Source of the DNA: an uncultured Gammaproteobacteria bacterium
GTDB lineage: Bacteria; Pseudomonadota; Gammaproteobacteria; JASBUN01
Length of the DNA stretch: 64,000 nt
NCBI GenBank assembly: GCA_963773585.1
Contig: CAVZBR010000001.1
Location: 366,298-430,297, forward strand
Direction of reading: 5' to 3'
The notes under the pieces are model-generated. The model made no database searches and was not told the DNA's origin. It worked only from the letters and a program-made list of their open reading frames with translations. This document shows positions 2,254 through 25,819 of the stretch, in pieces (within the stretch, counting starts at the first letter, position 1; the number at the start of each line of letters is the position of its first letter). The position numbers and the translations under genes were made by a program.

Positions 2254-3873
2254 TCAGACCTTGAACATGCTCGCCACTTCGTGCAGATGCTGGGCGACAC
2301 CAGCGAGGTTGACACTGCTCTGTGCCGATTCCGCGGAACTGGCAGCGCTCTCCTGACCGATCTGGTTGAGCCGCGCAATATTGTTGCTGATCTCTTCGGC
2401 CACCGCGCTTTGCTCCTCGGTGGCACTGGCGATCTGGGTGTTCATGTCATTGATCTGCTGCACCAGAGTGCGGATCTCGTTCAGTGCCACGGCCACCGAA
2501 TGTACCTGTTGGGCTCCCTGTTGCCCGGACTGCTGGGCGGTGTTCATCGCTTCGACGGCGCTGACCGAGCCGTTTTGCAGTTTCTCGATGATTTCGCGGA
2601 TCTCTTCGGTGGACTGCTGGGTGCGACCTGCGAGCGTGCGCACTTCGTCAGCGACCACGGCGAATCCGCGGCCTTGTTCGCCGGCGCGGGCGGCTTCGAT
2701 CGCCGCGTTCAAGGCCAGCAGGTTGGTCTGTTCCGCGATACCGCGGATGACTTCCAGAACGCTGCCGACCTGATCGGCGTCTTCGTTCAAGCGGTTGATG
2801 ACAGTCGCGGTATCCTCAATGCGGGTGACCAGGGTATTGATGTCCTTGACCGCCTGCTCGGTGGTGGAATGACCGCTTCGGGCCGAATCGTTCGCTTTCT
2901 GCGCCGCCTCGGCGGCGTTGGCTGTATTGCGCGCGACCTCGTGCACCGTGGAGGCCATCTCGGTGATGGCGGCAGCGACCGCACTGGTCTCGTGTTGTTG
3001 ATGCTCGATTCGGGATTCCGACTCCTGCATCATCACCGTCAATTCGCCTGCGGAACCGGAAAGGGTCTGGCTCGACTCGACCATGTCCTGCACCATGGCG
3101 CGCAACTTGCCCGTGAACTGATTGATGCCGGCGAGCAAAGCGGAGATCTCGTCTTGATTCGGCACCGGCAGTTGTACGGTGAGATCGCCTTCGCCACTGG
3201 CCAATTCGCGCATGAGACTGCTGCCATCGCGCAGCGGCTTGATGACCAGCTTGCGGAACAGCAGCATCAGCACGGCGATGACCAGAACCAGGGTCGCAAA
3301 CGCTGCGCTCAGATTGACGAACAGCAATTCGGAACCGACCTGTTCGCGTTTGTGGGTGATATCCGCGGCGAGTTTATCGATTTCGGCTTGGTTGGACTTT
3401 TCAAACGCCTCGTAGTCTGTTTTGGAGATGCCCACCGCGACTTTGCCGATGGTCTTGTCCTTTGATACCACATCGTAAGTCTTCTCGATCGAATTCGAGC
3501 GATCGGGTTGGGAGTCGGATTGCACCAACGGTGTCTTGCCGCCGGCGCCCAGGAACAACACATAGGCGATGCCGTTGGACTTGGCGTTCTTCTGTTGATT
3601 GGCCAACGCATCCTGGTCGTCGAAGAGAATGGGACCGACTGCCGATTTGCTCAGAAACTCGCCGATCAGATCGGCGCGCGCCTGGAGGGAATTCATGCGT
3701 TCCCGCTGCGCCACGATTTGCTCTTCGTGCAGGCGCTGCAAGGTGTCCGCCTGCTGTTCTTCCAGCTTGGCGCCGCTGCGGGAGTGGATCACCAACATGC
3801 CCACGCCCTGCGCGGCGAGCATGATCGCCAGCAATGGAATCATGAATTTGTATGCCAATCCCAGGTTCTTCAT
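2254..3873 (-). CDS. methyl-accepting chemotaxis protein (HAMP + MCP signalling domain)
   Basis: 539 aa. N-terminal TM, periplasmic sensor region, second TM, HAMP, and highly conserved MCP signalling core (..[35 protein letters not shown]..). Confidence 0.9.
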
Positions 3874-4011
3874 GTTTCTATCCTTCGTAGTTCGCTTGTG
3901 GTCCAGCTTCGTGCGCCCCTGCCCGATCAGATTCGCCTGTAGCGTTCGCGATCGGCCCGCCCCATACGCATCCCTGCGGTCAGACCACGCGCCTTGTGTC
4001 GCATCAGCGGA

Positions 4012-4314
4012 TCACTTGGCCGCGAGCTTGCGGCTGCAATATTTGAGCGCTGCCTTGTGCATGGCATCCGGGCTGCTGTACAGACCTTCGTCGACGGCGC
4101 GAATCAACATCGGATAGATGTTCGCTTCGTCGCTCGCGCCCCTCATCGCTTTTTTGGTCGACTCATAAGCCGCTTCGTTTTTTGCTGCTTTGGCGGCATA
4201 AAGGTCGGATGCGCGGTTGGCGGCGGTTTCGCAGTCAATGGCGTGGGCCGCGCCGGCTGCAACTACCATTGCAATGCCGCACGCGAGGTTGGTCAGTGCA
4301 GTGCGAGTCTTCAT
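4012..4314 (-). CDS. small secreted hypothetical protein
   Basis: Internal ATG (MKTRTALTNLACGIAMVVAAGAAHA signal peptide) at 4314, preceded by a GAGGGGGAA RBS. 100 aa. No recognisable family. Confidence 0.5.
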   Translation of the reverse strand: MKTRTALTNLACGIAMVVAAGAAHAIDCETAANRASDLYAAKAAKNEAAYESTKKAMRGASDEANIYPMLIRAVDEGLYSSPDAMHKAALKYCSRKLAAK

Positions 4315-4571
4315 CGCAAGTTCCCCCTCATCAGGTGCCGATTGGTATCGGGCCACTGCCGCCGGACGACGTCCGGCCACCGAACAGCGGCGTTCTGCCC
4401 GACATATCGGCAATTTCCATATTGACTTGAGCGAAACCATGGGGTAGAGCCGCAGCGAGCGGGAACCCAACCATGAGTATTTTCTTATATGCAGCAATGC
4501 TGTTTCGATCTGCTTGCCAGACGACAGTGCGTGCAGCACTATCGAACGCGGTCCGGCAGCGGAGATCACCC

Positions 4572-5000
4572 ATGGAGTTCTATGCCATCGCGCGTGCCGC
4601 CGCGCCGGCGTCGCTCTTGCAGCGCTACGTAACGGTCGGAAATCTTGCGCGTCTGTGCCCATCCATCGACAGGGTGCTGGCCGATGAAGGCGAACGCGGC
4701 GAGATCTATTGCGCCTGGGGTCAGTTCCGGATCACCCGTGAGGTGCTGCGTCACGGCGTGCGGTTTTCCCTGCCAAGCTGCGAGAGCGCACTGCAGTGGA
4801 GCATTACCGCGGCACGTCAGGAGACGGGTTGCGTGTTGGTCCATCTGGTTCTGAACCGCCGCGAGCTCGAGCCGGAATTCATCGAGGTATTGGAGCGGTT
4901 CGTGGACGACTGGCGTCTCGGGTTGGAGACGGAGCTGACCCAGCTGCGGGCCGCTTCCGCGCCGAAGCCGGGTCCGGCATGTATGCCCTGGTACGGATGA
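4572..5000 (+). CDS. hypothetical protein (uncertain)
   Basis: ATG at 4572 with GGAG 8 nt upstream. 142 aa with non-repetitive composition. Overlaps an R-rich antisense ORF judged to be an artefact. Region looks partly degraded. Confidence 0.3.
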   Translation: MEFYAIARAAAPASLLQRYVTVGNLARLCPSIDRVLADEGERGEIYCAWGQFRITREVLRHGVRFSLPSCESALQWSITAARQETGCVLVHLVLNRRELEPEFIEVLERFVDDWRLGLETELTQLRAASAPKPGPACMPWYG

Positions 5001-5035
5001 TCGATCGACATACTTTGCGCTAGCGACGTCCGCCG

Positions 5036-5720
5036 CTACGGCGTAAAGGCGATCCCACGCCGCCCACCTGCGTTTGAGCAATGCTTCTGGTATCCGGTCT
5101 TGGCAATCGAGACGATACCGAGCAATGCCGGCGCGCCAAGTTCGCGCGCTACGCGCAGTTCGGCCGAGATCCACCAGTAACCTCTCCCCGGGGACCTGGA
5201 GCCGGGCGCGCATAGCAGGATGTCTAAGCCGGGACATTGCGGTGACCCATTCCGGTTTAATGGTCTTGCCTCCGCGAACCTCCCACCAGACCAACAATAA
5301 ACCCATTGAATCCAAGCGCATCGACCCACTACGTGCCGCGTCACTAATTTCCCTGAGGCAACCACCTTTACACGCTCGCGCAATCCATATTCGCACAGCT
5401 TGTTCACCAGTAACGGAAAGCTCTCGCGCAAGGGCAAGCCCATATCAGCGACCAGCGGCATAGGGGCGGCGCCGGTGCCGCGGTCGGCACCATCTACGGT
5501 GGCGAAATCCGGGACGGATTCGACGCCGTGCTGGGACCTGATTGCGAGAAAGGCATCCAGTCAGCCGTATGCCACAGCGCGATGGAAGTGTCTTCTACAT
5601 AGATACTTGCGACCAGCGTCCGAAACGGCCCACGGGCTCTTTGTCGCCCGCAGATAGGTAAAAATACCTGGTCGAATAGAACACGTGCCAGTCCGAGATC
5701 CAATCTCCAGCTCTCCAAAT
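5036..5720 (-). pseudogene. remnant of FMN-binding glutamate-synthase-family (GltB domain 2-like) gene, frameshifted and truncated
   Basis: ORF 5036..5461 translates to ..GLPLRESFPLLVNKLCEYGLRERVKVVASGKLVTRHVV.., matching the conserved ..GLPwElGLaEthqtLvenGLRdRVrLrvDGGlkTGrDVv.. block of GltB-like proteins. The upstream motif (reverse complement of 5461-5500 gives DGADRGTGA, cf. GHDGGTGAS) is in a different frame. The downstream CHTNNCPVG region is unrecognisable. Confidence 0.5.
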
Positions 5721-5721
5721 C

Positions 5722-5816
5722 ACGTGTTAACGCGTATTTACGGTTTTATGCAGCAAGAATAGCGTTAAGGGCGAAATCAATTTGACGTTAGTCAGGCGTG
5801 TATTCAGAACGCGTTA
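5722..5816. promoter_or_regulatory. cluster of repeated ACGCGTTA-like motifs / imperfect palindrome upstream of the alkB-like gene
   Basis: acgtgttaacgcgta (5722-5736, palindromic around gttaac), gcgtta (5762-5767), acgtta (5785-5790) and acgcgtta (5809-5816) all fall within 100 bp upstream of the alkB-like start. Confidence 0.3.
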
Positions 5817-5881
5817 TGTCAGAGACCCGTTAGGGCGACTCGAAGCGCTATTCAACATTTGTACGGCTGGAGGTGATCGAC

Positions 5882-7036
5882 ATGAAGAAGTTTCTAGTCA
5901 ACGCGCGGTACTGGTTCGCGCCAATCCTGATCCTTGCATCGATGGTCGGCGTATTGGTAGGCGGCATGTTTTCGTGGTATGGGGTGCTGTTACTTGGCGT
6001 CGGTATCGTGATCGACACATTGCTCCGTTTTCAGACACCCGGGGCCGGTTACGACGATAACGGCGAAACCATGGGTATACCGTGGCTGCAGAATAGCGTC
6101 ATGTACTCGATGCTCGGTGTATTTGTGCTGCTGCAGGTGTCTCTGGCCTGGCGCATTTACCAATATGTCAACGGCGTGCCGATCAGCCAAGGGTTTGACC
6201 ACATGCTGTTCGGCATCCTGCCTTATCAGAACGGAATTTCAGGACTGAACCTGATCGGTGCCACTATATCGACCGGGATCTTCGCCGGTATCGGCATCAT
6301 CTATGGTCATGAACTGGCTCATACCAAAGGCGTTACTTTTGTCATCTCCCGGTGGATGATGGCGCTAAGCGGAAAAGCGCATTTCAGCTACGCGCACGTA
6401 TACAACCACCATCTTGAGCTTGGCCATGAGGACGATCCGGCAACGTCGCCTCGTGGTCGCAGCCTCTGGCAGCACTACCCGCTGGCGGGCATCGGCCAAT
6501 CGCGTTTCCTGTACCGCATGGAAAAGCAACGCCTCGAACGTCGCGGAAAGCCTTTCCTGACTTGGGAAAACCGCTGGCTGCGCGGATATGCCATGAGTTT
6601 GCCGACGCTGTTTTTGTTCTGGTATGCCGGAGCGTGGGTCGGAATCGGATGTCTTGCCATCGTCTGGTTTATCTCCAACTTCGAACTCGAAGCGCTCAAC
6701 TACATGGAGCACTACGGTTTGATCCGGGAAAAAGGTCAGCCCATCGACTACCGGCATTCCTGGGACAATTCCACGGCGTTTACAAGCTGGTTCTTCATCG
6801 AAATCGGTCGTCAGGCGGATCATCACGACCGTGGCGAAACCCACTTTTGGGAATTGGACGAAGTAGGTGCGCCCAACGTCGGTTGGGGCTACTTCACACT
6901 GTTCGCCGTGGCGCTGATGCCGCCGCTTTACCACGCCTACTACAAGAAGGAACTGGCGAGATGGGACGAACAATTTGCATCGGAAGGTGAGCGCCAGATC
7001 GCGGAACGCATCAATCGTCAGGTCGGTTACGCGTAA
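5882..7036 (+). CDS. alkB: AlkB-family integral-membrane di-iron alkane 1-monooxygenase / hydrocarbon hydroxylase
   Basis: ATG 5882 (alternative GTG 5873) with GGAGGTG RBS. Multiple TM helices. Histidine boxes HELAH, HVYNHHLELGHEDDPATSPRG, NYMEHYGL and RQADHH match the AlkB boxes (HELGHK, EHNRGHH..TPEDPATS, NYIEHYGL, LQRHSDHH). Confidence 0.85.
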   Translation: MKKFLVNARYWFAPILILASMVGVLVGGMFSWYGVLLLGVGIVIDTLLRFQTPGAGYDDNGETMGIPWLQNSVMYSMLGVFVLLQVSLAWRIYQYVNGVPISQGFDHMLFGILPYQNGISGLNLIGATISTGIFAGIGIIYGHELAHTKGVTFVISRWMMALSGKAHFSYAHVYNHHLELGHEDDPATSPRGRSLWQHYPLAGIGQSRFLYRMEKQRLERRGKPFLTWENRWLRGYAMSLPTLFLFWYAGAWVGIGCLAIVWFISNFELEALNYMEHYGLIREKGQPIDYRHSWDNSTAFTSWFFIEIGRQADHHDRGETHFWELDEVGAPNVGWGYFTLFAVALMPPLYHAYYKKELARWDEQFASEGERQIAERINRQVGYA

Positions 7037-7137
7037 ACGATCTTGTGTCGTGTGAGTGTACGCAAAGAGGGCGCCCCCTCGGGGAGGGGGCGGCGTTACC
7101 CGGATAGTCAAAGTCTACCCAAAGGAAGCATAAAACA

Positions 7138-7500
7138 ATGAACGAACAGACTCTTTACGAAAGGCTTGGTGGTTCGAAAGGCATTGCCGCAATAACGGAA
7201 GATATATGGTCGAATCATACCCAGAATCCGCTGGTCAGTAACCGATACGTGAATTCAGATCCGGAGAATGTCAAGCGATTGGTGCGTGAGATGTTTTGTG
7301 CGGGTACCGGCGGTACAGAGACATATACCGGCAAAGACATGCTGAGCGCACATACCGGAATGAATATCAACGATCAGGAGTTCAACGCAGTAATCGACGA
7401 TGTTTTAAAAGCGTTGAAATTGAACGATATCGGCAAGCGGGAAAGCGATGAGGTCCTGGCCATCCTGTGGTCGATGAAAGGCGAAATCGTTGGAGTTTGA
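7138..7500 (+). CDS. group-I truncated hemoglobin (trHbN-like)
   Basis: 120 aa beginning MNEQTLYERLGGSKGIAAITEDIWSNH, the typical trHb N-terminus. Length matches 2/2 hemoglobins. AAAGGAAGC RBS region upstream. Confidence 0.75.
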   Translation: MNEQTLYERLGGSKGIAAITEDIWSNHTQNPLVSNRYVNSDPENVKRLVREMFCAGTGGTETYTGKDMLSAHTGMNINDQEFNAVIDDVLKALKLNDIGKRESDEVLAILWSMKGEIVGV

Positions 7501-7543
7501 GAGTATTTGAGTCATCAGCCGATCTAGTGAAGGAGAAAAGGCT

Positions 7544-7726
7544 ATGAAAGTCACTTGGGATGAGAAGGTCTGTATCCATGCCGGGAAGTGTGTGGAAGGA
7601 AGTCCGGAAGTATTCAAAATTGAAAACGGAAAATTCGCGATCCATTTGGACGCCGGTGACGAGAATCAAGTTCGCTCCACGGTAGCGGCCTGTCCATCTG
7701 GTGCGTTGCAGATCCAAGAGCACTGA
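7544..7726 (+). CDS. small mono-cluster ferredoxin (divergent 4Fe-4S/3Fe-4S, Fer4_19-like)
   Basis: 60 aa. Cys at KVCIHAGKC and AACPSG (three Cys). AAGGAGAAAAGGCT RBS. Positioned between the monooxygenase and its reductase. Confidence 0.6.
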   Translation: MKVTWDEKVCIHAGKCVEGSPEVFKIENGKFAIHLDAGDENQVRSTVAACPSGALQIQEH

Positions 7727-7829
7727 ACAGCGCAATGTTCGGAACGTATTAAAGAACGGGTGCAAGCCGGTTTTCGAGCGAAAACAAGCCGGCGATGTAA
7801 CCAGCGAGATCTTGATCGAGGAGAACAGC

Positions 7830-8516
7830 ATGTTAGGCGATCGCTTGCAGAACAAAATGAAACTATACGGCAACCCGGCATGCCTGAATACAGCGAAGTG
7901 CTTGTTCACGGCTGCTGAAAAGGGCGTTGATATTGAGTCCCATTACGTGGGGCCAGACGGTCAGGGGGACGCAGCAGAAGCCGCGGTACTTTCGCCGCAC
8001 GGATCTCTTCCGGTACTCAGAGACGTGGACTTCGTTGTCTATGGTACCAATGCAATCATGTCGTATCTCGATGACAAAGGCTTCGGTCCTTCGCTGATTC
8101 CTCGGAACGCGACGGTGCGTACCGTCATGTATCAGTGGATTCACATCGCGTCTGAGTTGGCACAACCCGACGTCGCAGCCCTTATCAGTGGTGGCGGCAA
8201 TACCGATCTCGTTTCACATTGGTTCAGCGCGCTCAATGCGCACCTCGAGTCTAAGACCAAGGACGTCGCGCTGCGCGGAGACTATATCTGCGGCGCTTTC
8301 AGCCTCGCCGACATTCATTGGGCTGCCCTTGCGCAAGGTTGCGTACTTGCCGGCGCCGTCGACATCTTGAACTCGCAAGCGCAGGTGAAGAATTGGTGGC
8401 GTTTGATCAAAGAACATCCGAGTACGAGCAAAGAGAAAATCACGGCCTATGACATATTGCCAACTGCTAATGACATAAAGGGAAATAATCTTAGAGGCAT
8501 ACAGATAAACGCCTGA
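7830..8516 (+). CDS. glutathione S-transferase-like protein (paralog 1 of 3)
   Basis: GAGGAG RBS then ATG 7830. Thioredoxin-like N-domain (MKLYGNPACLNTAKCLFTAAEKGVDIE.., ..GSLPVLRDVDFVVYGTNAIMSYL) plus a helical C-domain. Paralogous to 9959..10672 and 10732..11523. Confidence 0.75.
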   Translation: MLGDRLQNKMKLYGNPACLNTAKCLFTAAEKGVDIESHYVGPDGQGDAAEAAVLSPHGSLPVLRDVDFVVYGTNAIMSYLDDKGFGPSLIPRNATVRTVMYQWIHIASELAQPDVAALISGGGNTDLVSHWFSALNAHLESKTKDVALRGDYICGAFSLADIHWAALAQGCVLAGAVDILNSQAQVKNWWRLIKEHPSTSKEKITAYDILPTANDIKGNNLRGIQINA

Positions 8517-8559
8517 AGTGTGCAATCGGCCCAGGCCGACCGACAGGAGTGATCGCCGG

Positions 8560-9645
8560 ATGTTCGGAGTATTCAAAAAGACCAAGCAGGCCTGGGCCGC
8601 GGAGGTTACTCCTTCCGGCAAGTCGATCACGGTGAAGGCGGGACAAAATCTGCTGAAGGCCGCATTGGACGCCGGGCTGCGGTGGCCCCACGACTGCCGA
8701 GTCGGCAGCTGCGGAACGTGCCGTTGCAAACTGAAGCAGGGGAAGGTGAAAGAGCTGTCTGACTTCGCTTATGTCCTGTCCCAGGAAGACCTGCAGTCGG
8801 GGATGATCCTTGCTTGTCAGTCTGCTTTGCGCAGCGATGTTTCGGTGGAAGTCGAGTTGCTGGAAGAAACGGCGCAAACCGTCAGCGTCACCTCGCACAA
8901 AGCCGTCATAGAGAGGGTAAACCCATTGACCCACGATATTGTCGAGTTGGTGATCAAGGCCGCTGACCAGTTTCCCCGTACGGCTGTAGCCGGACAATAC
9001 GCAGAACTGGAGATCGACGGTATCGCTGCGCCGAGGTCCTATTCGTTTGCCAAGGCCCCGGAGAACGAGTCCGATCACGAGATCACATTTTTCGTGCGTC
9101 GGGTTCCAGGCGGGGAGTGTACGGAGTGGTTGTTCAGCGAGGACCGGGCTGGAGAGCCCGTGACGGTCACCGGCCCCTACGGATCGTTCTGGTTGCGCCC
9201 TGGGAATTCACCGATCGTTTGCGTCGCAGGTGGCAGCGGCATGGCGCCCATCAAAGCGCTATTGGAAAGTGCGCTCAACAACGGCGCAAACAGGGACGTA
9301 TTGTTTCTGTTCGGGGCGCGCACGCAAAAGGATTTGTACTGTCTGGACGTCATGGACAGGCTACGTCAGGGTTGGAAGGGGAACTTCGAATTTGTGCCAG
9401 TTCTTTCCGAAGAGCCGGAAGACTCCGATTGGACAGGCGCTACGGGCTTTGTCACACACTATTTGGAAAGCGCATATATCGAGACGGGCAAGGTGGACGT
9501 GAAGAAAAGTCAGGGTTATTTGTGCGGGCCGCCGGCAATGGTTGACGCGGGCCAAGCTCTTCTGAGTTCCGCCGGAATGGCGAAGGAAGATATCCACTTC
9601 GACAAGTTTCTGGACGCGGCGACGATGCCCGCAGGCAGGAAATAG
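8560..9645 (+). CDS. XylA-type electron-transfer component: N-terminal plant-type [2Fe-2S] ferredoxin fused to FAD/NAD(P)H ferredoxin reductase
   Basis: ORF 8518..9645. ATG 8560 after CAGGAGTGA. CRVGSCGTCRC...LACQ 2Fe-2S motif, RSYSFA flavin-binding motif and GGSGMAPI NAD-binding motif. Confidence 0.85.
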   Translation: MFGVFKKTKQAWAAEVTPSGKSITVKAGQNLLKAALDAGLRWPHDCRVGSCGTCRCKLKQGKVKELSDFAYVLSQEDLQSGMILACQSALRSDVSVEVELLEETAQTVSVTSHKAVIERVNPLTHDIVELVIKAADQFPRTAVAGQYAELEIDGIAAPRSYSFAKAPENESDHEITFFVRRVPGGECTEWLFSEDRAGEPVTVTGPYGSFWLRPGNSPIVCVAGGSGMAPIKALLESALNNGANRDVLFLFGARTQKDLYCLDVMDRLRQGWKGNFEFVPVLSEEPEDSDWTGATGFVTHYLESAYIETGKVDVKKSQGYLCGPPAMVDAGQALLSSAGMAKEDIHFDKFLDAATMPAGRK

Positions 9646-9729
9646 AGTTTTCAGCAAGACGCGGCATTTGGAGTCTGAGGTCCCGGATGTATTCGGACTA
9701 GCAACGATTGTTTATTAGGAGATCAGAAC

Positions 9730-9939
9730 ATGGCGTCACTCAAGGCAATTTTTCTAATGATCGTATTTTCAGCGGCGGTCGCGTTCGGCATGAATGCGCT
9801 GGGACTTACGGAACACTTCCGCGAACCGGCCTATTCGTTGGCGGGCGCAGTTGTATTGCTCGTCGCGCTTATCGTGAACGTATGGCTCTATCTGAAAATT
9901 GCGGGGGAAACACCGTTTAAATGGTTCAAGGAAGACTAG
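9730..9939 (+). CDS. small two-TM membrane protein
   Basis: 69 aa. TTAGGAGATCAGAAC-ATG RBS. Two hydrophobic helices. Confidence 0.5.
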   Translation: MASLKAIFLMIVFSAAVAFGMNALGLTEHFREPAYSLAGAVVLLVALIVNVWLYLKIAGETPFKWFKED

Positions 9940-9958
9940 CCGACAGAGGAGCAGAGAC

Positions 9959-10672
9959 ATGGGGCTGTTTTCGCGAAAGAAGAAGTCTGGGCGCGGGATT
10001 CATCTGCGGGGGTTCCCCGGCGATTTGGATACATGCAAGTGCTTGTATCTGGCAGCCGAAAAGGGCATTCAAATGGACGTGGAGCTGGTGGACGTGACCG
10101 ACCGGGAACACGAAAATGCGGCGTTCCGCGCCTTGTCCCCCTTCGGGAAAGTTCCCTGCCTGGGTGAAGGCGGTTTAGTGATCTCCGGCGCCGCCGCCAT
10201 CCTGCCCTATCTCGACATCAAGGGTAGTGGTCCATCGCTAACCCCAAAAAAAGCCGCCCGCCTCGGAGACCAAAATTATTGGATTGAAGTCGGGCAATAC
10301 CGCGTGCTACCGCACGTTCACAATCTGGTCGACGAATACGTGCTGAAGCCAATGGTCTCATCGAGCCATACCCCTGATCCGGCGCAGATCGAACAGGCCG
10401 TGAACGCAGTAGAGCCTGTATTCGCGGTTGCAGACGAGTTCTTGGAAGGCAAAAACTATTTTGCGAGCGAATTTTCTTTTGCGGAAATTCACTGGGCGCC
10501 TTACCTGCACTTTTGGGTAATGACGGGCCAGGAGCAACGACTAGACGCGCATCCGAATCTCAAGCGTTGGTTCAGTCGCGTCCAAGCACGACAAAGTCAT
10601 GGCCGAAATACCTATGCGGTGTTACCGAGTCTGAAGCAGATTCAGGGTAAGGAGCTCAGGTATGTGGCCTGA
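9959..10672 (+). CDS. glutathione S-transferase-like protein (paralog 2 of 3)
   Basis: GAGGAGCAGAGAC-ATG. ..LRGFPGDLDTCKCLYLAAEKGIQMDVELVDV.. aligns with paralog 1. Conserved C-terminal ..FAEIHWAPYLHF.. block. Confidence 0.75.
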   Translation: MGLFSRKKKSGRGIHLRGFPGDLDTCKCLYLAAEKGIQMDVELVDVTDREHENAAFRALSPFGKVPCLGEGGLVISGAAAILPYLDIKGSGPSLTPKKAARLGDQNYWIEVGQYRVLPHVHNLVDEYVLKPMVSSSHTPDPAQIEQAVNAVEPVFAVADEFLEGKNYFASEFSFAEIHWAPYLHFWVMTGQEQRLDAHPNLKRWFSRVQARQSHGRNTYAVLPSLKQIQGKELRYVA

Positions 10673-10731
10673 CTTGAGCGGCCAACGGAAGACAGGCGCT
10701 TGCTTGGCGCCTGAAAATAGGGGAACTGACA

Positions 10732-11523
10732 ATGAACGAATTATTTGCGTTTGGTCGGTCTGCAGACGATGGTGCAAAGGACGCCCGCTATGGTTCAGCA
10801 GGAGATTTGAAAAAGACACAGTACGTTCTGCAGCTTTTGGGATTTCCGGCGCACGCGGATACATTGAAATGCCTAATCACCGCAGTCGAAATGGGCATGG
10901 AGACGGACGTCGGCGTGCTGGACATTCTCGAGGGGCAGGACGAAAGCAATGAATACCTGGCAGTGTCCCCGCTGGGTCTCGTGCCAGTGTTAAAAGAGGC
11001 CGAGTATTGCGTGGCGGGCGAAGCGGGAATCATGAGCTACATCGAGGCGCGAGGCCTGGGGAAACGGTTGCCACCGAAAAATGCCGCGCTGCTGGCGGAA
11101 CAGAATTATTGGTCCGATATTGCGTGCACGGAGGTGGGCCCGCACATCAAGGCACTGGTGAAAGAACATATCCTGGCGCCGATGGATGATTCCGTGTACA
11201 TGGTCAAATCGGCGGACATCGAGGCTTCGAGGAAGGCGCTCGCGGCGCCACTGGATGCGTTGAACGCTCAATTGGCAAACAATACGTTCATTATCGGCAA
11301 CTATTCCTTTGCGGATATTCATTGGACCGCTTACGTACATTTGCTGTACGAAGCTGGCGAGGGAGACCTTATAGACCAGCGTCCGAACGTCAAGGCATGG
11401 TTCGATCGGATCCGGACGCACAAGAGTTTCTCGGGGCAGAATATAGTTGCGTACGAGCTCTTGCCGAAGCTCGCGGATATCAAGAAAAAGAAACTTAATT
11501 CAATCGTAATAGACGATTATTGA
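10732..11523 (+). CDS. glutathione S-transferase-like protein (paralog 3 of 3, with 30-aa N-terminal extension)
   Basis: ..LLGFPAHADTLKCLITAVEMGMETDVGVLDI.. and ..FADIHWTAYVHL.. align with the other two paralogs. Confidence 0.7.
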   Translation: MNELFAFGRSADDGAKDARYGSAGDLKKTQYVLQLLGFPAHADTLKCLITAVEMGMETDVGVLDILEGQDESNEYLAVSPLGLVPVLKEAEYCVAGEAGIMSYIEARGLGKRLPPKNAALLAEQNYWSDIACTEVGPHIKALVKEHILAPMDDSVYMVKSADIEASRKALAAPLDALNAQLANNTFIIGNYSFADIHWTAYVHLLYEAGEGDLIDQRPNVKAWFDRIRTHKSFSGQNIVAYELLPKLADIKKKKLNSIVIDDY

Positions 11524-11957
11524 GAAGTGTGCTGGCAGGGAGAAGCGTGATGTTCTGGCGATTGAGTCGATCGGACAGCGAACTGGAAAGGGCAATGTCG
11601 ACATTGAACCCTTTTGTCTCAGACGCCTTGAGCGGGATAGACACACGGGAGCTTGAGCGGGGCGGCGCGCGAATGATGGCGGAGTGCTACGTGTACGGCG
11701 CCGTACGTTACCTGGCATCGTACGACGGCATGAGGGCCACCAATACTGGAATGTTGCTGGAACAAATGCTGGCAACACATTTCAGGGCGGATCACGAAGA
11801 AATCGGCCGCTGTCGGGCGCTATTTTCTGAAGTTGGAGCGAAAGACAGGGAGCAGGTATTCATGACAGAGGGAGCCAGCGCCATACGCCGTTGGCTGGTC
11901 AACGATGACCGGACGGTCGGAAGCCATCTAAAACAGTTGCTTGAGTCGGTGCACTGA
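11520..11957 (+). CDS. hypothetical protein (start uncertain)
   Basis: 145-aa ORF immediately after GST paralog 3. No recognisable domain. Could start at internal ATG 11550. Confidence 0.3.
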   Translation: MRSVLAGRSVMFWRLSRSDSELERAMSTLNPFVSDALSGIDTRELERGGARMMAECYVYGAVRYLASYDGMRATNTGMLLEQMLATHFRADHEEIGRCRALFSEVGAKDREQVFMTEGASAIRRWLVNDDRTVGSHLKQLLESVH

Positions 11958-12057
11958 TAGGCGCGCGGAAAGCGGTTTTGAGCGCAGTTGTCGCTTCAGG
12001 ATGACCAGAGTCGGATCGGCGGACAAACAGAGAGATCAAACGTAGGAGAGTATTAAC

Positions 12058-12171
12058 ATGTCTCAGAGTGGCGGAAACAATGCAATGGTGTTTGTAGGTG
12101 CGATAGCAGTTGGGGTCGCGATTATCGCGGTGACGCTGTATCTATCGGGTGCATTGAACGCGTTGTTTTAA
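12058..12171 (+). CDS. 37-aa hydrophobic micropeptide
   Basis: Not in the ORF track (<60 aa). GTAGGAGAGTATTAAC-ATG RBS. MSQSGGNNAMVFVGAIAVGVAIIAVTLYLSGALNALF, a single TM helix. Confidence 0.35.
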   Translation: MSQSGGNNAMVFVGAIAVGVAIIAVTLYLSGALNALF

Positions 12172-12933
12172 TCGGGTGAACATGATGCAAGAAGTCTAGG
12201 TGATCAGTTTACGGTAGATTTCACCGATGCGAAATGGAGCTTCTCGACCTGGTCTACTACGACAAAGTTATCGTGCCCGAACATATGGGGAAGGTAGTTC
12301 GGCGCATGGTCGTCGATCGTGATGCAAAACGGATGGATCCCCGCCTGGCGCGTCTACATGAGCGCCTTGCGCGTATAGGCACCTTGATAGCCGCTTTCGT
12401 CGTCAGACCGGCCGTCTGACAAGACGACCAATAAACGCTGTACGCGCTTCTCCAGCCAAGAGCTTCGCGCTGTGGTGGCGTATGGCGACTCCCATGCGCG
12501 TGAAGTGCTGCGGCATTGGATTCAGCGGTCACGGTTTGTTCTGTTAAGCGGCACCATCGCTCGCGATAGCATTGGCGCGCCTGATCCCATTCGTCATATG
12601 TAAACTCCGTGTCTGCTGAAGGCGCATCCGGCGTTGCAGGTGTAGGGAGTTCCTCGTCGCGGCTTCCGTGGGCCGCGGGCTCGGGTATCTCCTGAAAATC
12701 CGGAGAACGCATCGCTGTGTCGTGCTGGAGAAGTTTGTCTTGGTTTAATGCATTCAATACGACTGCGGGCTCCAGTGCGCCTTGATATTCGGCGGGAGGG
12801 GGATCGTTGTCCTCAGGATACACGCGTGCCAGCCAGCGCAGACTATCGCTGCTACGTCAAGTAGACGGACTGTTGCTGCCGCGCACCATGAGCGCGCAAA
12901 ACCGCTGTCGGCACTGTTTCATGGCCCGTAACG

Positions 12934-13740
12934 TTATGCGAAATACAGGTTCAGCCAGTACGCGCCCCAACCGAGCAAACCCAGGCCGCTGGCGAACCGA
13001 ACCCGGCGTGAAGCGGGCAAAATCTTTTCCATCAGTACGAATCCGGTGATCAGCGCCACCCAAAGCATATTCATGACACCGACGGCAAACAATATCAGCA
13101 TCAGCGCCCAACAGCAGCCCACGCAATAAATGCCGTGCCGAATCCCCATTAAGAGGGCTCCACGGGCCCCGTCTCTCCATTCCGTCATTAGAAAGCCCAA
13201 TGGACTGCGGCATTTCGTGAGGCAGGCGTCTTTCAGGGGCGTCCACTGGTAAAGCCCCGCCCCGATAAGGACCAAACCGCTCAACAGGTAACTGGCACTG
13301 TTCATCATAGGATTGAGCAAGCCCACTGTATGCAACGGCCACTGAGCGATGGCCGCCAAGACGCTAAATCCCGTCCACGCGATCAAATAACCGGCAACAA
13401 ATATGAAAGTCGGTGTATATGGCTGTTCGCGACGGCGCAGACTTCGGCTTACGGTCGCGAACATCGTCACCATCGGTAGAGACGACGGCGTCATCATGGC
13501 GACCATCATGATCGACCACATCACCAAAAGCATGAAAAAGTCGGTGGGTGACCAAATTGAGGAAGCAGACGGAGGCATCCACATCTCAAGCTGTCCCATG
13601 TTGCCCATGGCCCCCGCCATGTGGAACATGTACCCCCAACCCGCCAGTGTGATGGCAGCCAAACCGCCGCCGACGATCAAATGGTCTCGAGCGCTGAGCC
13701 GTGTGTGCACCGCATCCGGAAATGGAATGGATTTTGACAT
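12934..13740 (-). CDS. DUF2182-family predicted metal-binding integral membrane protein
   Basis: Internal ATG MSKSIPFP at 13740 with GAGAGGG RBS. Polytopic membrane protein rich in Met, His and Cys. Paired with DUF1326 as in other genomes. Confidence 0.6.
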   Translation of the reverse strand: MSKSIPFPDAVHTRLSARDHLIVGGGLAAITLAGWGYMFHMAGAMGNMGQLEMWMPPSASSIWSPTDFFMLLVMWSIMMVAMMTPSSLPMVTMFATVSRSLRRREQPYTPTFIFVAGYLIAWTGFSVLAAIAQWPLHTVGLLNPMMNSASYLLSGLVLIGAGLYQWTPLKDACLTKCRSPLGFLMTEWRDGARGALLMGIRHGIYCVGCCWALMLILFAVGVMNMLWVALITGFVLMEKILPASRRVRFASGLGLLGWGAYWLNLYFA

Positions 13741-14042
13741 AGCCCTCTCTCGTTGGCAGTAACGGTGCGCTCTATCAAAACATTCTGCACGTGGCGTTGC
13801 GCTAGGGAACGATGATGCGCCAGGCGCGCGGCACAGAAAACACGTAGTTTTGCGTATATATGAGGGAAATCCCAATGCCTAGTGTGAGAAGCGCGGATTG
13901 AGTTCCCGTTCGGGGGGTTCAATGCGTAGCGCGACACTTGATGATTAGTACCAGCGGGCCAGTTTGTAGTGAACGAGCATTGTCCTGGCGCGTTTGATGC
14001 TGTCATTTCACCACTCGAATACCAGAACGAGAGGACAAAGCG

Positions 14043-14651
14043 ATGGTGAATGAATCGGATTGGAGCCTTAAGGGTGACTATTTTGAGTCGTGCAACTGCG
14101 ACTTGGTATGTCCTTGTATTTTTTTACGCCCACCCACAGAGGGATTTTGCGAGGCATTCGTAGGGTGGCACGTGGAAAAGGGTCATATGGGCGATGTAAG
14201 CCTGGACGGTCTGAACGTAGCTGCTTGGCTGCACTCGCCGGGCGCGCTGACCGATGGCGGTTGGCGCCTAGCGTTGTACATAGATGAACGGGCTGACGAG
14301 GCACAGACTGCGGCGTTCACAAAGATATTCGGCGGGGAAGTGGGTGGACATCCCGCGGTTTTGGCGAGCTTGGTCGGCGAGCTGATGGGTGTTAAGAATG
14401 TGCCGATCGAATTCAAGAAAGAGAACGGCACACACGTCCTCGATATTCCGGGAATCGGCAAGAACGTGACTGAGGCGGTGGCGGGAGAAGATGGTGGAGC
14501 CGTCATGGTTTCCAACCATCCGCTGGCCGTTTCTCCGGGGAATCCGGTTCGGATTTCGGCTTCGACGCAGGCGCAATTCAAAGATTACGATGTGACTTGG
14601 ACGCAACACGACAAAGTGGGTTTGTCGGCACCATTTTCCTATCACCCGTGA
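14043..14651 (+). CDS. DUF1326-family protein
   Basis: 202 aa with N-terminal YFESCNCDLVCPC cysteine motif characteristic of DUF1326. Divergent from the DUF2182 gene. Confidence 0.65.
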   Translation: MVNESDWSLKGDYFESCNCDLVCPCIFLRPPTEGFCEAFVGWHVEKGHMGDVSLDGLNVAAWLHSPGALTDGGWRLALYIDERADEAQTAAFTKIFGGEVGGHPAVLASLVGELMGVKNVPIEFKKENGTHVLDIPGIGKNVTEAVAGEDGGAVMVSNHPLAVSPGNPVRISASTQAQFKDYDVTWTQHDKVGLSAPFSYHP

Positions 14652-14827
14652 ATTTGCGTGTTTTGGCATTGCGCCGCCAAGCGCACGGCTTACCCGTCAG
14701 GCGCTGAATCGGTACAACAGCCACCGAACGGACGGTGAGAGCGGCCGAGGATGCGGCGCGCAACGGGCTCGCCGCGCAGTGGCCGCCTCGAAAAGCGACG
14801 CGCCGTGCGGGCCGATGACGTAATTCT

Positions 14828-15214
14828 CTAGGCGCCGGAGCAAAAGTTCAGATATTGTTGGGCGTCCATGAGTCCAGCGAAATCGGCGGCGTCGTCCGGT
14901 TGTATTCGAAGCAGCCAACCCGCCTTATACGGGTCGCCATTGATAAGTTCAGGCCTATTCAGAAGTTCAGTATTGGTCGCGACTATCATGCCGCCCAACG
15001 GTAAAACCAATTCACTTACCACTTTGGCGGATTCGATAAGGCCGAACGTTTGACTCTTGGCGACAGTGTCACCGGGATCGGGAATTTCGACAAACAGAAT
15101 GTCACCGAGACTCTCCTGGGCAAAATTCGTGATGGCGATCAGATAGGTGCCTTCCTTGTCTTTTCGACACCCCAGGTGAGATTGGTTGCACAGGTAGCCA
15201 CCAGGGCATTGCAT
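14828..15214 (-). CDS. GcvH-family lipoyl-carrier protein (orphan, no gcvT/gcvP nearby)
   Basis: ..YLIAITNFAQESLGDILFVEIPDPGDTV..LIESAKVVSELVLPLGG..PELINGDPYKAGWL.. matches the GcvH fold, including the lipoyl-lysine in the ESAK motif. Start at MQCPGGY. Confidence 0.7.
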   Translation of the reverse strand: MQCPGGYLCNQSHLGCRKDKEGTYLIAITNFAQESLGDILFVEIPDPGDTVAKSQTFGLIESAKVVSELVLPLGGMIVATNTELLNRPELINGDPYKAGWLLRIQPDDAADFAGLMDAQQYLNFCSGA

Positions 15215-15356
15215 TGAATAGATCCTCACTTCGATAAAGGCGAATGGAGCAATTTCGCCGCCAATACGTATGGCCACGGAAATCCGATATGGGCGACGGG
15301 ACTAAACGGTGGGGCGGCGGCCTGGAATAATGACCAGGCCGCCGCGTTCACGTTGA

Positions 15357-16589
15357 TCAAAACGTCCAGCTCAGACCGGCGCCGAATTGCCAAGCGCTGG
15401 CTTCGACTTTTGTGCCGCCGATCTGTTCGCTTTCTTCCAAGGCGGTGGCAGCGTGAATGTCGATGCGAAAGTTGTTATTCACAGCATACCCAAGGCCTGC
15501 CGTGACTTGGTGCTTCCAGATAACCTCTGCATTGGTGGCTTGCAGATAGCGTACCAATGTCGGGTTGAGTTGCACGGTAGAGCCGCCAGCAACGAGGGAA
15601 GTGGCCTCACCGACACTTGAGCCGACGTTGCCTTTGATGGGGCTGTCGGCGTAGCTATAGCCTAACCGCCATTTGAATTTCCCTTGGGTGAGTTGCGCGC
15701 CCAGGCCAAAGACCGTCTGATTGTCATATATGTCCTGGTAGAAGTCGGCCTGTCCCCAGTTCTTCCAGGTGACATCGCCTTCGATCAGCAGATTGCCGCC
15801 CATTAGGGATGAGTTCGCGATGCCCAGCGCGAGTTCTTGCGGCTGCTCGACGGTAAGGTCATAGAAACCCGTGGCGGAATATTTGGTCGCGTTGTCGTAT
15901 TTGATGGAAAGCGGGCTGCGGTAATAGGCGCCAAAGGTGGTTGGACCAAGTTCATAGGTCGTGCCGAGGGTGGCACGTATCCCGTATCCGTGCACGGAGG
16001 AGCCGTTTTCCAGCAGACCGAGCTGTAGGTAACCGCTTCCGAGAGTCACCATGCCGCCCACATTCCAGTGGTCGTTGAGTTTGTACGCGAGCCCTGCGTT
16101 GGCGCCGAAGAGGATCAGCTCCGCCGTTGGACTCAGGCTTCCCGGTACCGACCGGAAATCGGATCCGATACCCGATACGGGTGTCAAGCCGACGCCGAGC
16201 GTCAGGCCATTGCCGAGAGGTTGGATAATGCTGACGTTCGGCAGCAGGTAATCACTCGCGTCGGAGTCGGCGGACCACGCCGTACCGGTTGCACTTCCAT
16301 CGTGGGTATCGGTGACCGCTGGGTGATAAAACGTGGCGCCGAACAGGAAATGCGTGCCGTAGTCATACTGACTCAGGGTGGCGGGGTTGCCGAATACTGC
16401 AGCGGAAGTGTCCTGCGGCCGTGCGATACCGACACCACCCATTCCGCCGGCGGCAGGCATCATGGTGAGGTTCAGGTCGGTCCCGTAGTTGGCCGCCTGG
16501 GCGCTCCCGGCTAATAGCGTCATCAAAGTTGCGTACAACACGCGCACTTTTGACCGTCCTGTGATGTGATGACTCAATGGATTGTTCAT
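15357..16589 (-). CDS. FadL/TodX/XylN-family outer-membrane hydrophobic-compound channel
   Basis: 410 aa. Signal peptide ending ..AGSAQA. Gly/Ser/Thr/Tyr-rich beta-barrel composition. C-terminal ..GLSWTF aromatic terminus typical of the FadL family. Confidence 0.75.
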   Translation of the reverse strand: MNNPLSHHITGRSKVRVLYATLMTLLAGSAQAANYGTDLNLTMMPAAGGMGGVGIARPQDTSAAVFGNPATLSQYDYGTHFLFGATFYHPAVTDTHDGSATGTAWSADSDASDYLLPNVSIIQPLGNGLTLGVGLTPVSGIGSDFRSVPGSLSPTAELILFGANAGLAYKLNDHWNVGGMVTLGSGYLQLGLLENGSSVHGYGIRATLGTTYELGPTTFGAYYRSPLSIKYDNATKYSATGFYDLTVEQPQELALGIANSSLMGGNLLIEGDVTWKNWGQADFYQDIYDNQTVFGLGAQLTQGKFKWRLGYSYADSPIKGNVGSSVGEATSLVAGGSTVQLNPTLVRYLQATNAEVIWKHQVTAGLGYAVNNNFRIDIHAATALEESEQIGGTKVEASAWQFGAGLSWTF

Positions 16590-16675: not shown

Positions 16676-17230
16676 TCAGAGTTTTTCGCCGTTGAGCGTG
16701 ACGTTTCCGGTGACGGTCACTGCGCGGCAGATGGTATCCAGCACCGGACAGTGCGATTCGACGGTCTCAGCGAGTTTGCGAATGGTTTCGGCATCTGCCG
16801 GGCTGTCGATGAAAGTCTCATAACGAACGTTGTCGTATCCGGCAGGAATATTTTCGTCCATAGCGAACAAACCACGCAGGTCCAGATATCCTTTGACAGC
16901 GACTTTTACGCTGGTGAGCTCGACTCCCATTACTGACGCGTAAGCGGAGTACATGATCTCCTGGCACGTGCCGAGGGCGGCAAGAACGAGCTCGACCGGG
17001 TTCATACCGGCGTCTTCGCCGCCCAGCTCCGGCGGCTCGTCGATTGTCAGGAGCGGGAATTCGCGCACTTTCGCCGTGCAACGCACCCCGCTTTGGAGTT
17101 CGGTTTCCGAGCGGAATACCAGCTTGGCCGCCTGGGGGTTGGCCTGGATTCGTCCCATTGTCTTGGTCAGGGCGGCTTTGACACGATCGTTCGCGGAAGT
17201 TTGTGTTGTGCTCTCTGGCGTAGCGCTCAT
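16676..17230 (-). CDS. OsmC/Ohr-family peroxiredoxin-like protein
   Basis: 184 aa with ..GGEDAGMNPVELVLAALGTCQ.. and ..HCPV.. motifs of OsmC. Confidence 0.75.
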   Translation of the reverse strand: MSATPESTTQTSANDRVKAALTKTMGRIQANPQAAKLVFRSETELQSGVRCTAKVREFPLLTIDEPPELGGEDAGMNPVELVLAALGTCQEIMYSAYASVMGVELTSVKVAVKGYLDLRGLFAMDENIPAGYDNVRYETFIDSPADAETIRKLAETVESHCPVLDTICRAVTVTGNVTLNGEKL

Positions 17231-25804: not shown

Positions 25805-25819
25805 CTAGTTGCTCATCTG
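25805..25819 (+). promoter_or_regulatory. sigma-54 (-24/-12) promoter
   Basis: TGGCAC-ACTAG-TTGCT is a near-perfect match to the TGGCACG-N4-TTGCW consensus. Oriented toward the ATP-grasp gene about 440 nt downstream. Confidence 0.6.

Follow-up and report, generated by a model that had tools for sequence, protein, structure and literature searches.

A conserved AlkB-like hydroxylase cassette in which a stand-alone Fer4_19 ferredoxin accompanies a XylA-type reductase

AlkB-type hydroxylases are central to hydrocarbon turnover, and the supply of electrons to these enzymes limits their biocatalytic use. The AlkB-AlkG-AlkT system of Pseudomonas putida GPo1 relies on a rubredoxin and a rubredoxin reductase of the AlkT type, and the XylMA system of plasmid pWW0 relies on a reductase that contains plant-type 2Fe-2S, FAD and NAD domains. 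Proteins in which ferredoxin, reductase and hydroxylase are fused (ferr_ferrR_AlkB) are known in Limnobacter, Polaromonas and Leptospira (Nie 2014; Williams and Austin 2022), and activity in the absence of rubredoxin has been demonstrated for the fused type (PMC8918992). Here we analyze a 64-kb stretch of DNA from an uncultured Gammaproteobacteria bacterium (contig CAVZBR010000001.1, positions 366,298 to 430,297), referred to as the window, which sets the scope of our statements on this genome. It encodes an AlkB-like hydroxylase together with a truncated globin, a stand-alone ferredoxin of 60 amino acids (aa) from the Fer4_19 family (hereafter mini-ferredoxin), a glutathione S-transferase (GST)-like protein (GST1), a XylA-type reductase (FNR) and a 69-aa hydrophobic protein. 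We favor, at roughly even chances, a linear chain in which the reductase would pass electrons to the mini-ferredoxin and the mini-ferredoxin to the hydroxylase, within a multi-component membrane di-iron monooxygenase. If true, this would be a third solution to electron supply, beside rubredoxin/AlkT and XylA-type or fused ferredoxin-reductase (Fd-FNR) partners, and would give a physiological role to the largely uncharacterized Fer4_19 ferredoxin family.

The cassette resembles XylMA in combining a membrane hydroxylase of the AlkB superfamily with a reductase of identical architecture, in lacking a rubredoxin, and in having a FadL/TodX-type channel (XylN in the case of XylMA) in or beside the operon. 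Unlike in XylMA, the hydroxylase is not orthologue-like (25.7% identity to XylM) and has Gln where XylM keeps His, the mini-ferredoxin, a Cys-type GST, a small membrane protein and a globin are added, and alcohol or aldehyde dehydrogenase genes are absent from the minimal cassette. The ferr_ferrR_AlkB proteins belong to the same branch of the AlkB superfamily and are among the best matches in the plasmid collection, with a hydroxylase 29% identical and a reductase half 45% identical (Polaromonas CJ2) to the respective cassette proteins. Their components are fused whereas those of the cassette are separate; in addition, they have no extra ferredoxin, GST or globin, keep all nine His ligands and are followed by genes for alcohol and aldehyde oxidation. 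With AlkB-AlkG-AlkT (P. putida GPo1; FtAlkBG, PDB 8f6t) the cassette shares the hydroxylase fold, the His-box motifs, the Glu ligand and a small soluble one-electron iron-sulfur carrier that is proposed to dock on the hydroxylase; however, neither a rubredoxin nor a Pyr_redox_2 reductase was found, the carrier is a ferredoxin-fold Fer4_19 protein, and Gln takes the place of the FtAlkB residue His311, an Fe2 ligand.

The wiring that we propose has its closest counterparts in T4moF with T4moC and in CarAd with CarAc, where an FNR-type reductase with a 2Fe-2S cluster feeds a separate small ferredoxin and this in turn the oxygenase. The ferredoxins T4moC and CarAc are of the Rieske type, as opposed to the three-Cys Fer4_19 protein of the cassette, and the terminal oxygenases of toluene monooxygenases and class III Rieske systems are soluble (carboxylate-bridged di-iron or Rieske) whereas the cassette enzyme is predicted to be His-ligated and membrane-bound. 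A preliminary description of this DNA had considered two ferredoxin carriers for one hydroxylase unusual. This stands within the AlkB/XylM type, for which we found no described system with an extra stand-alone ferredoxin, but not beyond it: a reductase with its own 2Fe-2S domain plus a separate ferredoxin is the established wiring, and normal design, in four-component toluene monooxygenases and class III Rieske oxygenases.

In the reductase we identified the domains Fer2 (30-104), FAD_binding_6 (132-224) and NAD_binding_1 (236-344; numbering of the 375-aa open reading frame, ORF), the same order as in XylA of pWW0, to which the protein is 44% identical over 333 aa. The XylA-like architecture assigned to it in the preliminary description is therefore borne out. 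The protein is also similar to BenC, AntC and MmoC, and the best PDB relatives are 5ogx, 1krh, 7c3a and 4wqm, which include a GcoB-type P450 reductase, BenC, CarAd (7c3a, the carbazole dioxygenase reductase) and T4moF (4wqm). The nearest sequence neighbors of the hydroxylase include N- or C-terminal Fd-FNR fusions and separate pairs of FNR and hydroxylase. Since these nearest relatives have XylA-type reductases, separate or fused, an AlkB-type enzyme in which a XylA-like reductase replaces rubredoxin is already known for this branch.

In agreement with the earlier observation that the window has neither rubredoxin nor AlkT-type reductase, a six-frame regular-expression scan for the rubredoxin motif CxxCG...CxxC found none near the locus; matches elsewhere in the 64 kb are only UvrA-type zinc fingers and a zinc-ribbon-like stretch at 49965. 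The pattern recognizes the rubredoxin of C. pasteurianum, and in the same scan it found no rubredoxin in about 95 related loci (to about 8 kb around the homologs). No Pyr_redox_2 (AlkT-type) reductase was present among the 37 window ORFs scanned with Pfam, in which a DAO/Mqo-type oxidoreductase (42449-43798) and an acyl-CoA dehydrogenase-like protein were the only further flavoenzymes. The true partners could nevertheless be a canonical rubredoxin and its reductase from another part of the genome, with the local reductase and mini-ferredoxin serving another purpose: rubA and rubB lie apart from alkB in many bacteria (PMC8918992), and the window covers 64 kb of the genome. We consider this very improbable given that no rubredoxin lies near any of the homologous loci, that the reductase is an orthologue-level relative of XylA located inside the operon, and that Fd-FNR partners, in many cases fused ones, are the rule throughout the superfamily branch around it.

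The mini-ferredoxin matches PF06902 with 59.1 bits (cut-off 24) and contains exactly three Cys (C10, C16, C50) along with His12, in the motif C10-x-H12-x3-C16-x33-C50-P51; the 60-aa three-cysteine ferredoxin of the preliminary description is confirmed in this respect, and the coordinates given there for it and for the reductase (7544..7726 and 8560..9645) hold. C10, H12, C16, C50 and P51 are invariant across 48 homologs. Its gene is preceded by a GGAG Shine-Dalgarno site and is under purifying selection, with a ratio of nonsynonymous to synonymous substitution rates (dN/dS) of 0.18 in 24 orthologs. The protein aligns end to end with a 60-aa Thermotoga ferredoxin and has Ala at the position of the second cluster Cys. 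The AlphaFold2 (AF2) model (pLDDT 96.3) matched 1vjw, 1siz, 4id8, 1fxr and 8amp in Foldseek with TM-scores of 0.70-0.82; these nearest folds are monocluster [3Fe-4S]/[4Fe-4S] carriers and include the P450 partners 4id8 and 8amp. Sequence and modeled fold together indicate that the mini-ferredoxin is a bona fide ferredoxin.

The nature of its cluster can be predicted from a relative. According to a preprint on a class E flavodiiron protein from Syntrophomonas wolfei, the C-terminal Fer4_19 domain of that protein carries a [3Fe-4S]1+/0 cluster with a potential of +70 mV, the conserved His is not a cluster ligand, the family motif is CxHx3Cx32-33CP, and spectroscopic work on E. coli YjdI is cited (bioRxiv 10.1101/2024.04.03.587993). 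Both YjdI and the flavodiiron domain share Pfam family and motif with the mini-ferredoxin, which differs from YjdI in being shorter (60 aa) and devoid of the N-terminal extension, and from the flavodiiron domain in standing alone, with a membrane oxygenase as its presumed partner. The flavodiiron fusion is a precedent for a Fer4_19 module that serves a di-iron enzyme. A potential of +70 mV is rubredoxin-like and lies downhill from a plant-type 2Fe-2S cluster.

In order to determine which genes accompany the hydroxylase, we fetched 80 genomic loci with hydroxylase relatives, clustered all ORFs and tabulated the architectures. Cassettes with GST1, which we call type A (n=35), fall into four architectures: alkB-globin-Fd-GST1-FNR-TM (TM, small membrane protein), with or without GST2-GST3-orf145 or FadL, in 15 loci; alkB-Fd-GST1-FNR-TM without globin in 9; alkB-GST1-FNR-TM in 1 (L014); and alkB-GST1-TM without mini-ferredoxin, reductase and globin in 10. 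In about 40 further loci an alkB-like gene lies by fabA and a MerR/B12-binding regulator without the cassette ('type B'). The arrangement alkB-[globin]-Fd-GST1-FNR-TM recurs in about 25 loci, including the cultured Methylophaga sulfidovorans, at hydroxylase identities down to 70% and in differing chromosomal contexts (for example between pnp-msrB and gluQ-xseA), and the minimal cassette of six genes is flanked by housekeeping genes.

The mini-ferredoxin gene is present in 24/25 cassettes that have the reductase and in 0/10 that do not, and a re-check with hidden Markov models (HMMs) found no remnants. Joint absence of the two genes needs two separate events because GST1 sits between them. The globin is found in 15/24 cassettes with a mini-ferredoxin, and the remaining 9 keep the mini-ferredoxin without it. 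From the reductase pattern and these nine cassettes we conclude that the mini-ferredoxin tracks the reductase and belongs to its chain, and that it is not a globin-specific carrier. The idea put forward earlier, that the neighboring globin may be a second acceptor, therefore lacks support as a general explanation, although the mini-ferredoxin may have a side role in keeping the globin reduced where a globin is present. The hydroxylase has partners that are more constant: GST1 is encoded in 35/35 type-A cassettes and the small membrane protein in 34/35 by ORF clustering (cluster 7) and 35/35 by HMM. Our literature search found no description of this cassette. New here are a conserved cassette in which hydroxylase, GST1 and the small membrane protein are constant whereas mini-ferredoxin, reductase and globin may be present or absent; the tie between a Fer4_19 ferredoxin and the reductase; and a hydroxylase clade with an altered Fe2 ligand.

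In the linear chain that we infer, NAD(P)H would reduce the FAD of the XylA-type reductase, and single electrons would pass from FAD to the reductase's own plant-type [2Fe-2S] domain and from there to the Fer4_19 mini-ferredoxin with its predicted [3Fe-4S] cluster. The mini-ferredoxin would then act as a diffusible one-electron shuttle to the di-iron site, in the role that AlkG has for AlkB and T4moC for toluene 4-monooxygenase. The hydroxylase would cooperate with its invariant partners, the 69-aa membrane protein and the Cys-type GST-like protein; the FadL/TodX channel would import a small hydrophobic substrate, and the truncated globin would be an optional addition for dealing with O2 or reactive oxygen species.

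Several observations weigh against this chain. The 2Fe-2S domain of the reductase alone could suffice, as XylA and the fused proteins need no extra ferredoxin, and L014 has the reductase without a mini-ferredoxin. The ten cassettes without reductase represent two lineages only, and for this reason the co-occurrence statistics are weaker than the raw counts. Both the type and the potential of the predicted [3Fe-4S] cluster are extrapolated from one relative. Among 126 Fer4_19 homologs (49-87 aa) there are no fusions to a hydroxylase, reductase or GST, and close homologs of the mini-ferredoxin also occur away from any hydroxylase (L097, L093, L094). Finally, the net charge of the reductase ferredoxin domain ranges from -5 to +3 and shows no difference between systems with and without a mini-ferredoxin. 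Electrostatic complementarity was accordingly rejected as an indicator, as charge fails to separate mini-ferredoxin systems from XylA, the fusion and L014.

Some of these facts would fit the main alternative, a branching chain, in which the reductase serves the hydroxylase directly as in XylMA and the mini-ferredoxin serves a second acceptor. That acceptor could be the globin (kept ferrous, or cycling as a peroxidase or NO dioxygenase), but also the Cys-type GST or some other enzyme. The systems that work without an extra carrier, namely XylMA and the fused ferredoxin/reductase/AlkB proteins, speak for it, as do the reductase of L014, which has no mini-ferredoxin beside it, and locus L092, where the mini-ferredoxin is encoded in a neighboring operon rather than with alkB, globin and FNR. 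In addition, SbHbN-type globins are redox-reactive and are reduced in vitro by a Fd/FNR system (PMC11904497). However, the globin cannot be the acceptor in the nine cassettes that keep the mini-ferredoxin without it, GST1 stays where mini-ferredoxin and reductase are both lost and is thus independent of the mini-ferredoxin, and the minimal six-gene cassette conserves nothing else that would be an obvious acceptor. We regard a branching chain as rather unlikely.

The mini-ferredoxin could also sense redox state or iron, or help to mature the altered di-iron site, and merely be co-transcribed with the other genes instead of carrying electrons for this enzyme. YjdI of E. coli and most Fer4_19 proteins are without known function, close homologs of the mini-ferredoxin are found in unrelated contexts, and the NorQ/NorD-like pair by the Methylophaga cassette indicates that maturation factors can be cassette-linked. 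On the other hand, the mini-ferredoxin follows the reductase in its distribution and not the hydroxylase, it has the fold and the size of a diffusible carrier, P450 partners among them, and the one Fer4_19 domain studied biochemically as a fusion is treated as a redox centre of its enzyme, where it may carry electrons. In our view a sensor or maturation role is improbable, and the linear chain from reductase through mini-ferredoxin to hydroxylase remains the reading that we prefer.

The hydroxylase matches Pfam FA_desaturase (PF00487) with 95 bits (cut-off 29.7) and contains the motifs HELAH, AHVYNHH, NYMEHYGL and ADHH. Its sequence matches FtAlkB (8f6t) with E 4e-26, and its AF2 model (pLDDT 93.3) has a TM-score of 0.78 to both 8f6t and 8sbb, two FtAlkB structures that are the sole significant PDB folds. 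Motifs, Pfam match and fold thus uphold the original assignment to the AlkB type, and the protein is predicted to be a membrane-bound di-iron monooxygenase. Identity to XylM, canonical AlkBs and the fused Polaromonas CJ2 protein is 26-30%. The near homologs, 68-96% identical, come from uncultured marine Gammaproteobacteria, with sources that include Thiotrichales, Thiogranum, Cocleimonas, Thiothrix, metagenome-assembled genomes (MAGs) assigned to Candidatus Porisulfidus (a sponge-derived name) and Methylophaga. Because a library clustered at 50% identity holds one full-length representative of the family, and the next relatives are at most 41% identical, the hydroxylase forms a discrete and so far uncharacterized clade within the AlkB/XylM superfamily.

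In FtAlkB two irons are bound by nine His and one Glu. The ligands of Fe2, which is the iron closest to the substrate, include His311, the first of the His residues in 'LQRH311SDHH' (PMC10113152). The equivalent residue in the clade is Gln ('IGRQ311ADHH'; codon at 6812-6814 of the window), which is invariant in 83/83 homologs, as are the remaining eight His ligands and the Glu. Gln311 is kept even in a 55%-identical outlier of the family; His occupies this position in XylM, in the fused AlkBs and in 20/20 of the nearest outgroup proteins. Four further His are family-invariant (H167, H198, H292, H321). With eight of the nine His ligands retained, the hydroxylase is best described as a divergent rather than canonical member of the superfamily, and the exchange of His311 for Gln is a family-defining change at the catalytic metal site. 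The clade thus has a natural His-to-Gln variant at the iron site that is thought to activate C-H bonds.

Near-duplicate copies of the hydroxylase gene were observed in at least 10 genomes, where one alkB-like gene lies in a cassette and the other by fabA and the MerR/B12-binding regulator (pairs L016/L017, L018/L020, L026/L025, L028/L029, L031/L030, L032/L033, L035/L022, L040/L038, L041/L039 and L060/L058, the gene being located at about 7990-9145 in each locus). The paired copies are 99.4-100% identical at the DNA level, from about 10 nt before the start to at most about 90 nt after the stop codon; their flanks are unrelated, and copies between genomes differ by 25-30%. Such pairs indicate that gene conversion is still going on or that ORF-precise duplication has occurred repeatedly. 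About 2 kb 5' of the fabA-linked copy, L023 (5805-6206) and 11 further type B loci encode a CDGSH iron-sulfur protein with two domains (133 aa), which could be an alternative redox partner of that hydroxylase copy.

GST1 has PDB matches to 4kdu, phi-class GSTs and SspA. Its Cys in the motif 'P-A/S-C' aligns with the catalytic Ser of phi-type GSTs ('PMS', 'PTS') and is present in every GST1 variant listed. The N-terminal domain scores above the Pfam cut-offs, there is no GST_C match, and the non-enzymatic proteins SspA and FzlA are comparably similar; GST1 is therefore best called a putative Cys-type GST-like protein. Cys-catalytic GSTs act as thiol transferases, deglutathionylating enzymes or reductases. 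GST2, which was found in the clade of the window and in L005-L013, and GST3 have no Cys at the catalytic position, and only tentative roles can be assigned to either of them. The 69-aa hydrophobic protein, whose gene has a Shine-Dalgarno site and a dN/dS of 0.24, is a candidate membrane subunit of the hydroxylase. The constant pairing of the hydroxylase with a Cys-type GST and a tiny membrane protein adds two unstudied features to this enzyme group.

The best PDB matches of the globin are the 'Group 1 truncated hemoglobin' entries 7tt9, 8ugz and 8uzu (E 1e-34). It keeps the 'RY' of SbHbN ('NRYVNSD'), has Tyr at CD1 and shows a dN/dS of 0.08. SbHbN of Shewanella benthica (7tt9) shows no reversible O2 binding and is readily converted to a haem d form (PMC11904497). 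A role of the cassette globin in the chemistry of reactive oxygen species or O2 seems more likely than oxygen delivery. SbHbN-type globins of Shewanella (L089-L091) are stand-alone genes with no hydroxylase cassette; the globin subgroup is thus not confined to the cassette, into which it was recruited. The gene context of the characterized Shewanella globin was considered as a clue to its partners and rejected, the gene standing alone there.

The substrate can be approached through the neighboring genes. The FadL/TodX channel near the cassette of the window corresponds to XylN and AlkL. A FadL/TodX gene lies directly 3' of the cassette in 15 loci, including Methylophaga, and such a channel (XylN) also accompanies the xyl operon, which points to an imported substrate that is small and hydrophobic. 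One tentative possibility, which we hold to be somewhat doubtful, is that the cassette encodes the enzyme for the first step of dimethylsulfide (DMS) catabolism in Methylophaga and in many marine sulfur-oxidizing or symbiotic Gammaproteobacteria. The AlkB-like monooxygenase, fed by reductase and mini-ferredoxin, may hydroxylate a methyl group of DMS to give methanethiol and formaldehyde, and the Cys-type GST and the globin may deal with thiol and peroxide by-products. The initial enzyme of DMS catabolism has been described as unidentified, in 2022 once more. The strongest lead to the substrate is an indirect one. When Methylophaga thiooxydans grows on DMS as compared with methanol, four transcripts rise 29-136-fold along with methanethiol oxidase, annotated as 'fatty acid desaturase domain protein', 'oxidoreductase, NAD-binding domain', 'HbN' and 'aromatic hydrocarbon degradation membrane protein' (PMC6548844, Table S6). 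In M. sulfidovorans, the other Methylophaga species with methanethiol oxidase, the same four gene types form one operon, which is the cassette.

The M. thiooxydans genes match the cassette by annotation only, and their adjacency in that genome is possible; the locus-tag numbers are not positional, and the genes were not found in 90% clusters of M. sulfidovorans proteins. The gene for a 53%-identical mini-ferredoxin adjoins a gene for SBP56 (methanethiol-oxidase family), and that for a 55%-identical one adjoins a gene for a protein resembling sulfide:quinone oxidoreductase (SQR). Against a DMS substrate, earlier enzyme assays detected no DMS monooxygenase activity in extracts. By tblastn, no methanethiol oxidase, SQR or Sox genes were found in the window or the cassette loci. 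If the enzyme did convert DMS to methanethiol, a gap in the marine sulfur cycle would be closed and a functional marker gene gained; the cassette is common in marine sulfur oxidizers, methylotrophs and MAGs assigned to Candidatus Porisulfidus.

Kroeber and Schaefer themselves read the induced 'fatty acid desaturase' of M. thiooxydans as a sign of lipid repair under H2O2 stress (PMC6548844), and the cassette could accordingly be a system that modifies or repairs membrane lipids under oxidative or light stress instead of a catabolic hydroxylase. The DNA-identical second copy by fabA and a MerR/B12-binding regulator of the light-sensor type (about 40 loci) would suit such a function, and so would the gene neighborhood, with OsmC, MsrB and a GcvH-like lipoyl protein as well as a Cys-type GST and a reactive globin. 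However, the NYxEHYG motif and the AlkB fold are those of hydroxylases and not of acyl-lipid desaturases, 15 loci include a FadL/TodX channel in the operon, much as the xyl operon includes XylN, and the reported 136-fold induction by DMS is similar in magnitude to the induction of methanethiol oxidase. We consider a lipid-repair function unlikely.

The features of the locus are listed in Table 1. The first nine genes lie on the same strand with gaps of 19-103 nt, a GGAG/GAGG-type Shine-Dalgarno site precedes each of them, and no convincing terminator was found inside the run; sigma-70 and terminator scans gave results at or below chance. We conclude from this that 5882-11957 is one operon. Control of the operon by sigma-54 was rejected, there being no TGGCAC-N5-TTGC site 5' of alkB. 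The conserved ORF closes the operon in 15 loci (ORF cluster 17) and has a dN/dS of 0.24.

Table 1. Genes of the hydroxylase cassette and its downstream neighborhood (positions in the window).
Feature	Position	Strand	Family or domain match
AlkB-like hydroxylase, 384 aa	5882-7036	+	PF00487, E 8e-27
Truncated globin, group 1 (N), subgroup 2 type, 120 aa	7138-7500	+	PF01152
Mini-ferredoxin, stand-alone, 60 aa	7544-7726	+	PF06902 Fer4_19
GST-like protein 1 (GST1), 228 aa	7830-8516	+	GST_N_3, GST_N_2, GST_N
XylA-type reductase, 361 aa	8560-9645	+	Fer2, FAD_binding_6, NAD_binding_1
Small hydrophobic protein, 69 aa	9730-9939	+	without family
GST-like protein 2 (GST2), 237 aa	9959-10672	+	GST_N, GST_C
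GST-like protein 3 (GST3), 263 aa	10732-11523	+	GST_C, GST_N
Conserved ORF, about 120-145 aa, start uncertain	11520-11957	+	no Pfam or NCBIfam match
DUF2182/PpoB2 ('copper chaperone' family)	12934-13875	-	Pfam
DUF1326	14043-14651	+	Pfam
GcvH-like lipoyl-carrier protein	14828-15277	-	Pfam
FadL/TodX-type outer-membrane channel	15357-16589	-	Pfam
OsmC-like protein	16676-17230	-	Pfam
Acyl-CoA-dehydrogenase-like flavoprotein	18761-19975	+	Pfam
PAS histidine kinase	19978-22275	+	Pfam
LuxR-type response regulator	22285-22941	+	Pfam

Some of the genes downstream of the operon recur elsewhere. DUF2182/PpoB2 adjoins the cassette also in L001, L002 and L014, and DUF1326 in L014; they are a putative metal-handling pair that is loosely associated with the cassette. 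OsmC/Ohr enzymes can take lipoylated proteins as reductants, and the OsmC-like, FadL/TodX and GcvH-like genes on the minus strand may form a hydroperoxide-detoxifying unit. An acyl-CoA dehydrogenase-like gene is found near the cassette in L003, L004, L015, L042 and Methylophaga. In L092 a PAS kinase and a LuxR regulator abut the alkB-like gene, and the two are recurrent neighbors and candidate regulators.

The region from about 5720 to 16000 has a G+C content of 53-55%, whereas the flanks reach about 60%. At 5720, 160 nt upstream of alkB, synteny with 96%-identical relatives sets in abruptly, and the genes upstream of this point (a HerA-like ATPase, a methyl-accepting chemotaxis protein, MCP, and two unannotated ORFs) are not common to the relatives. 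These features are consistent with horizontal acquisition of the cassette region as a mobile module.

Around the M. sulfidovorans cassette (L083, FOSH01000001) we examined the regions 3616-6514 and 10791-14002. A CbbQ/NorQ-type AAA+ protein and a VWA protein (NorQ/NorD-like) are encoded divergently 5' of the cassette; NorQ/NorD-like AAA+/VWA pairs act as metal-insertion or activase chaperones in other systems. The 3' side carries FadL/TodX, a second and longer globin, a SCO4226-like protein and an NMO-family protein.

Two loci with more distant mini-ferredoxin homologs have neighborhoods of their own. In L094 (5690-7191) the order is TetR, SCO4226-like, Fer4_19 and SBP56, and in L092 (3942-6177) it is cupin, SQR-like flavoprotein and Fer4_19, the latter group lying 2.3 kb from an operon of alkB-like, globin, FNR and hydrolase genes with the PAS-kinase and LuxR regulators. 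The Pyr_redox_2 gene by the mini-ferredoxin in L092 was considered as an AlkT or ferredoxin-reductase partner and rejected; its N-terminal 'YYQPAWTLVGGG' motif resembles that of sulfide:quinone oxidoreductases.

Further downstream in the window (23410-29471) two paralogous sigma-54 activators (GAF / AAA+ / HTH) are encoded in inverted orientation, and the halves encoding their sensor domains are 95% identical over 906 nt (23472-24377 and 28555-29460). Between them lies an ATP-grasp gene (26051-27268) that has a perfect TGGCAC-N5-TTGC site 5' of it at 25798.

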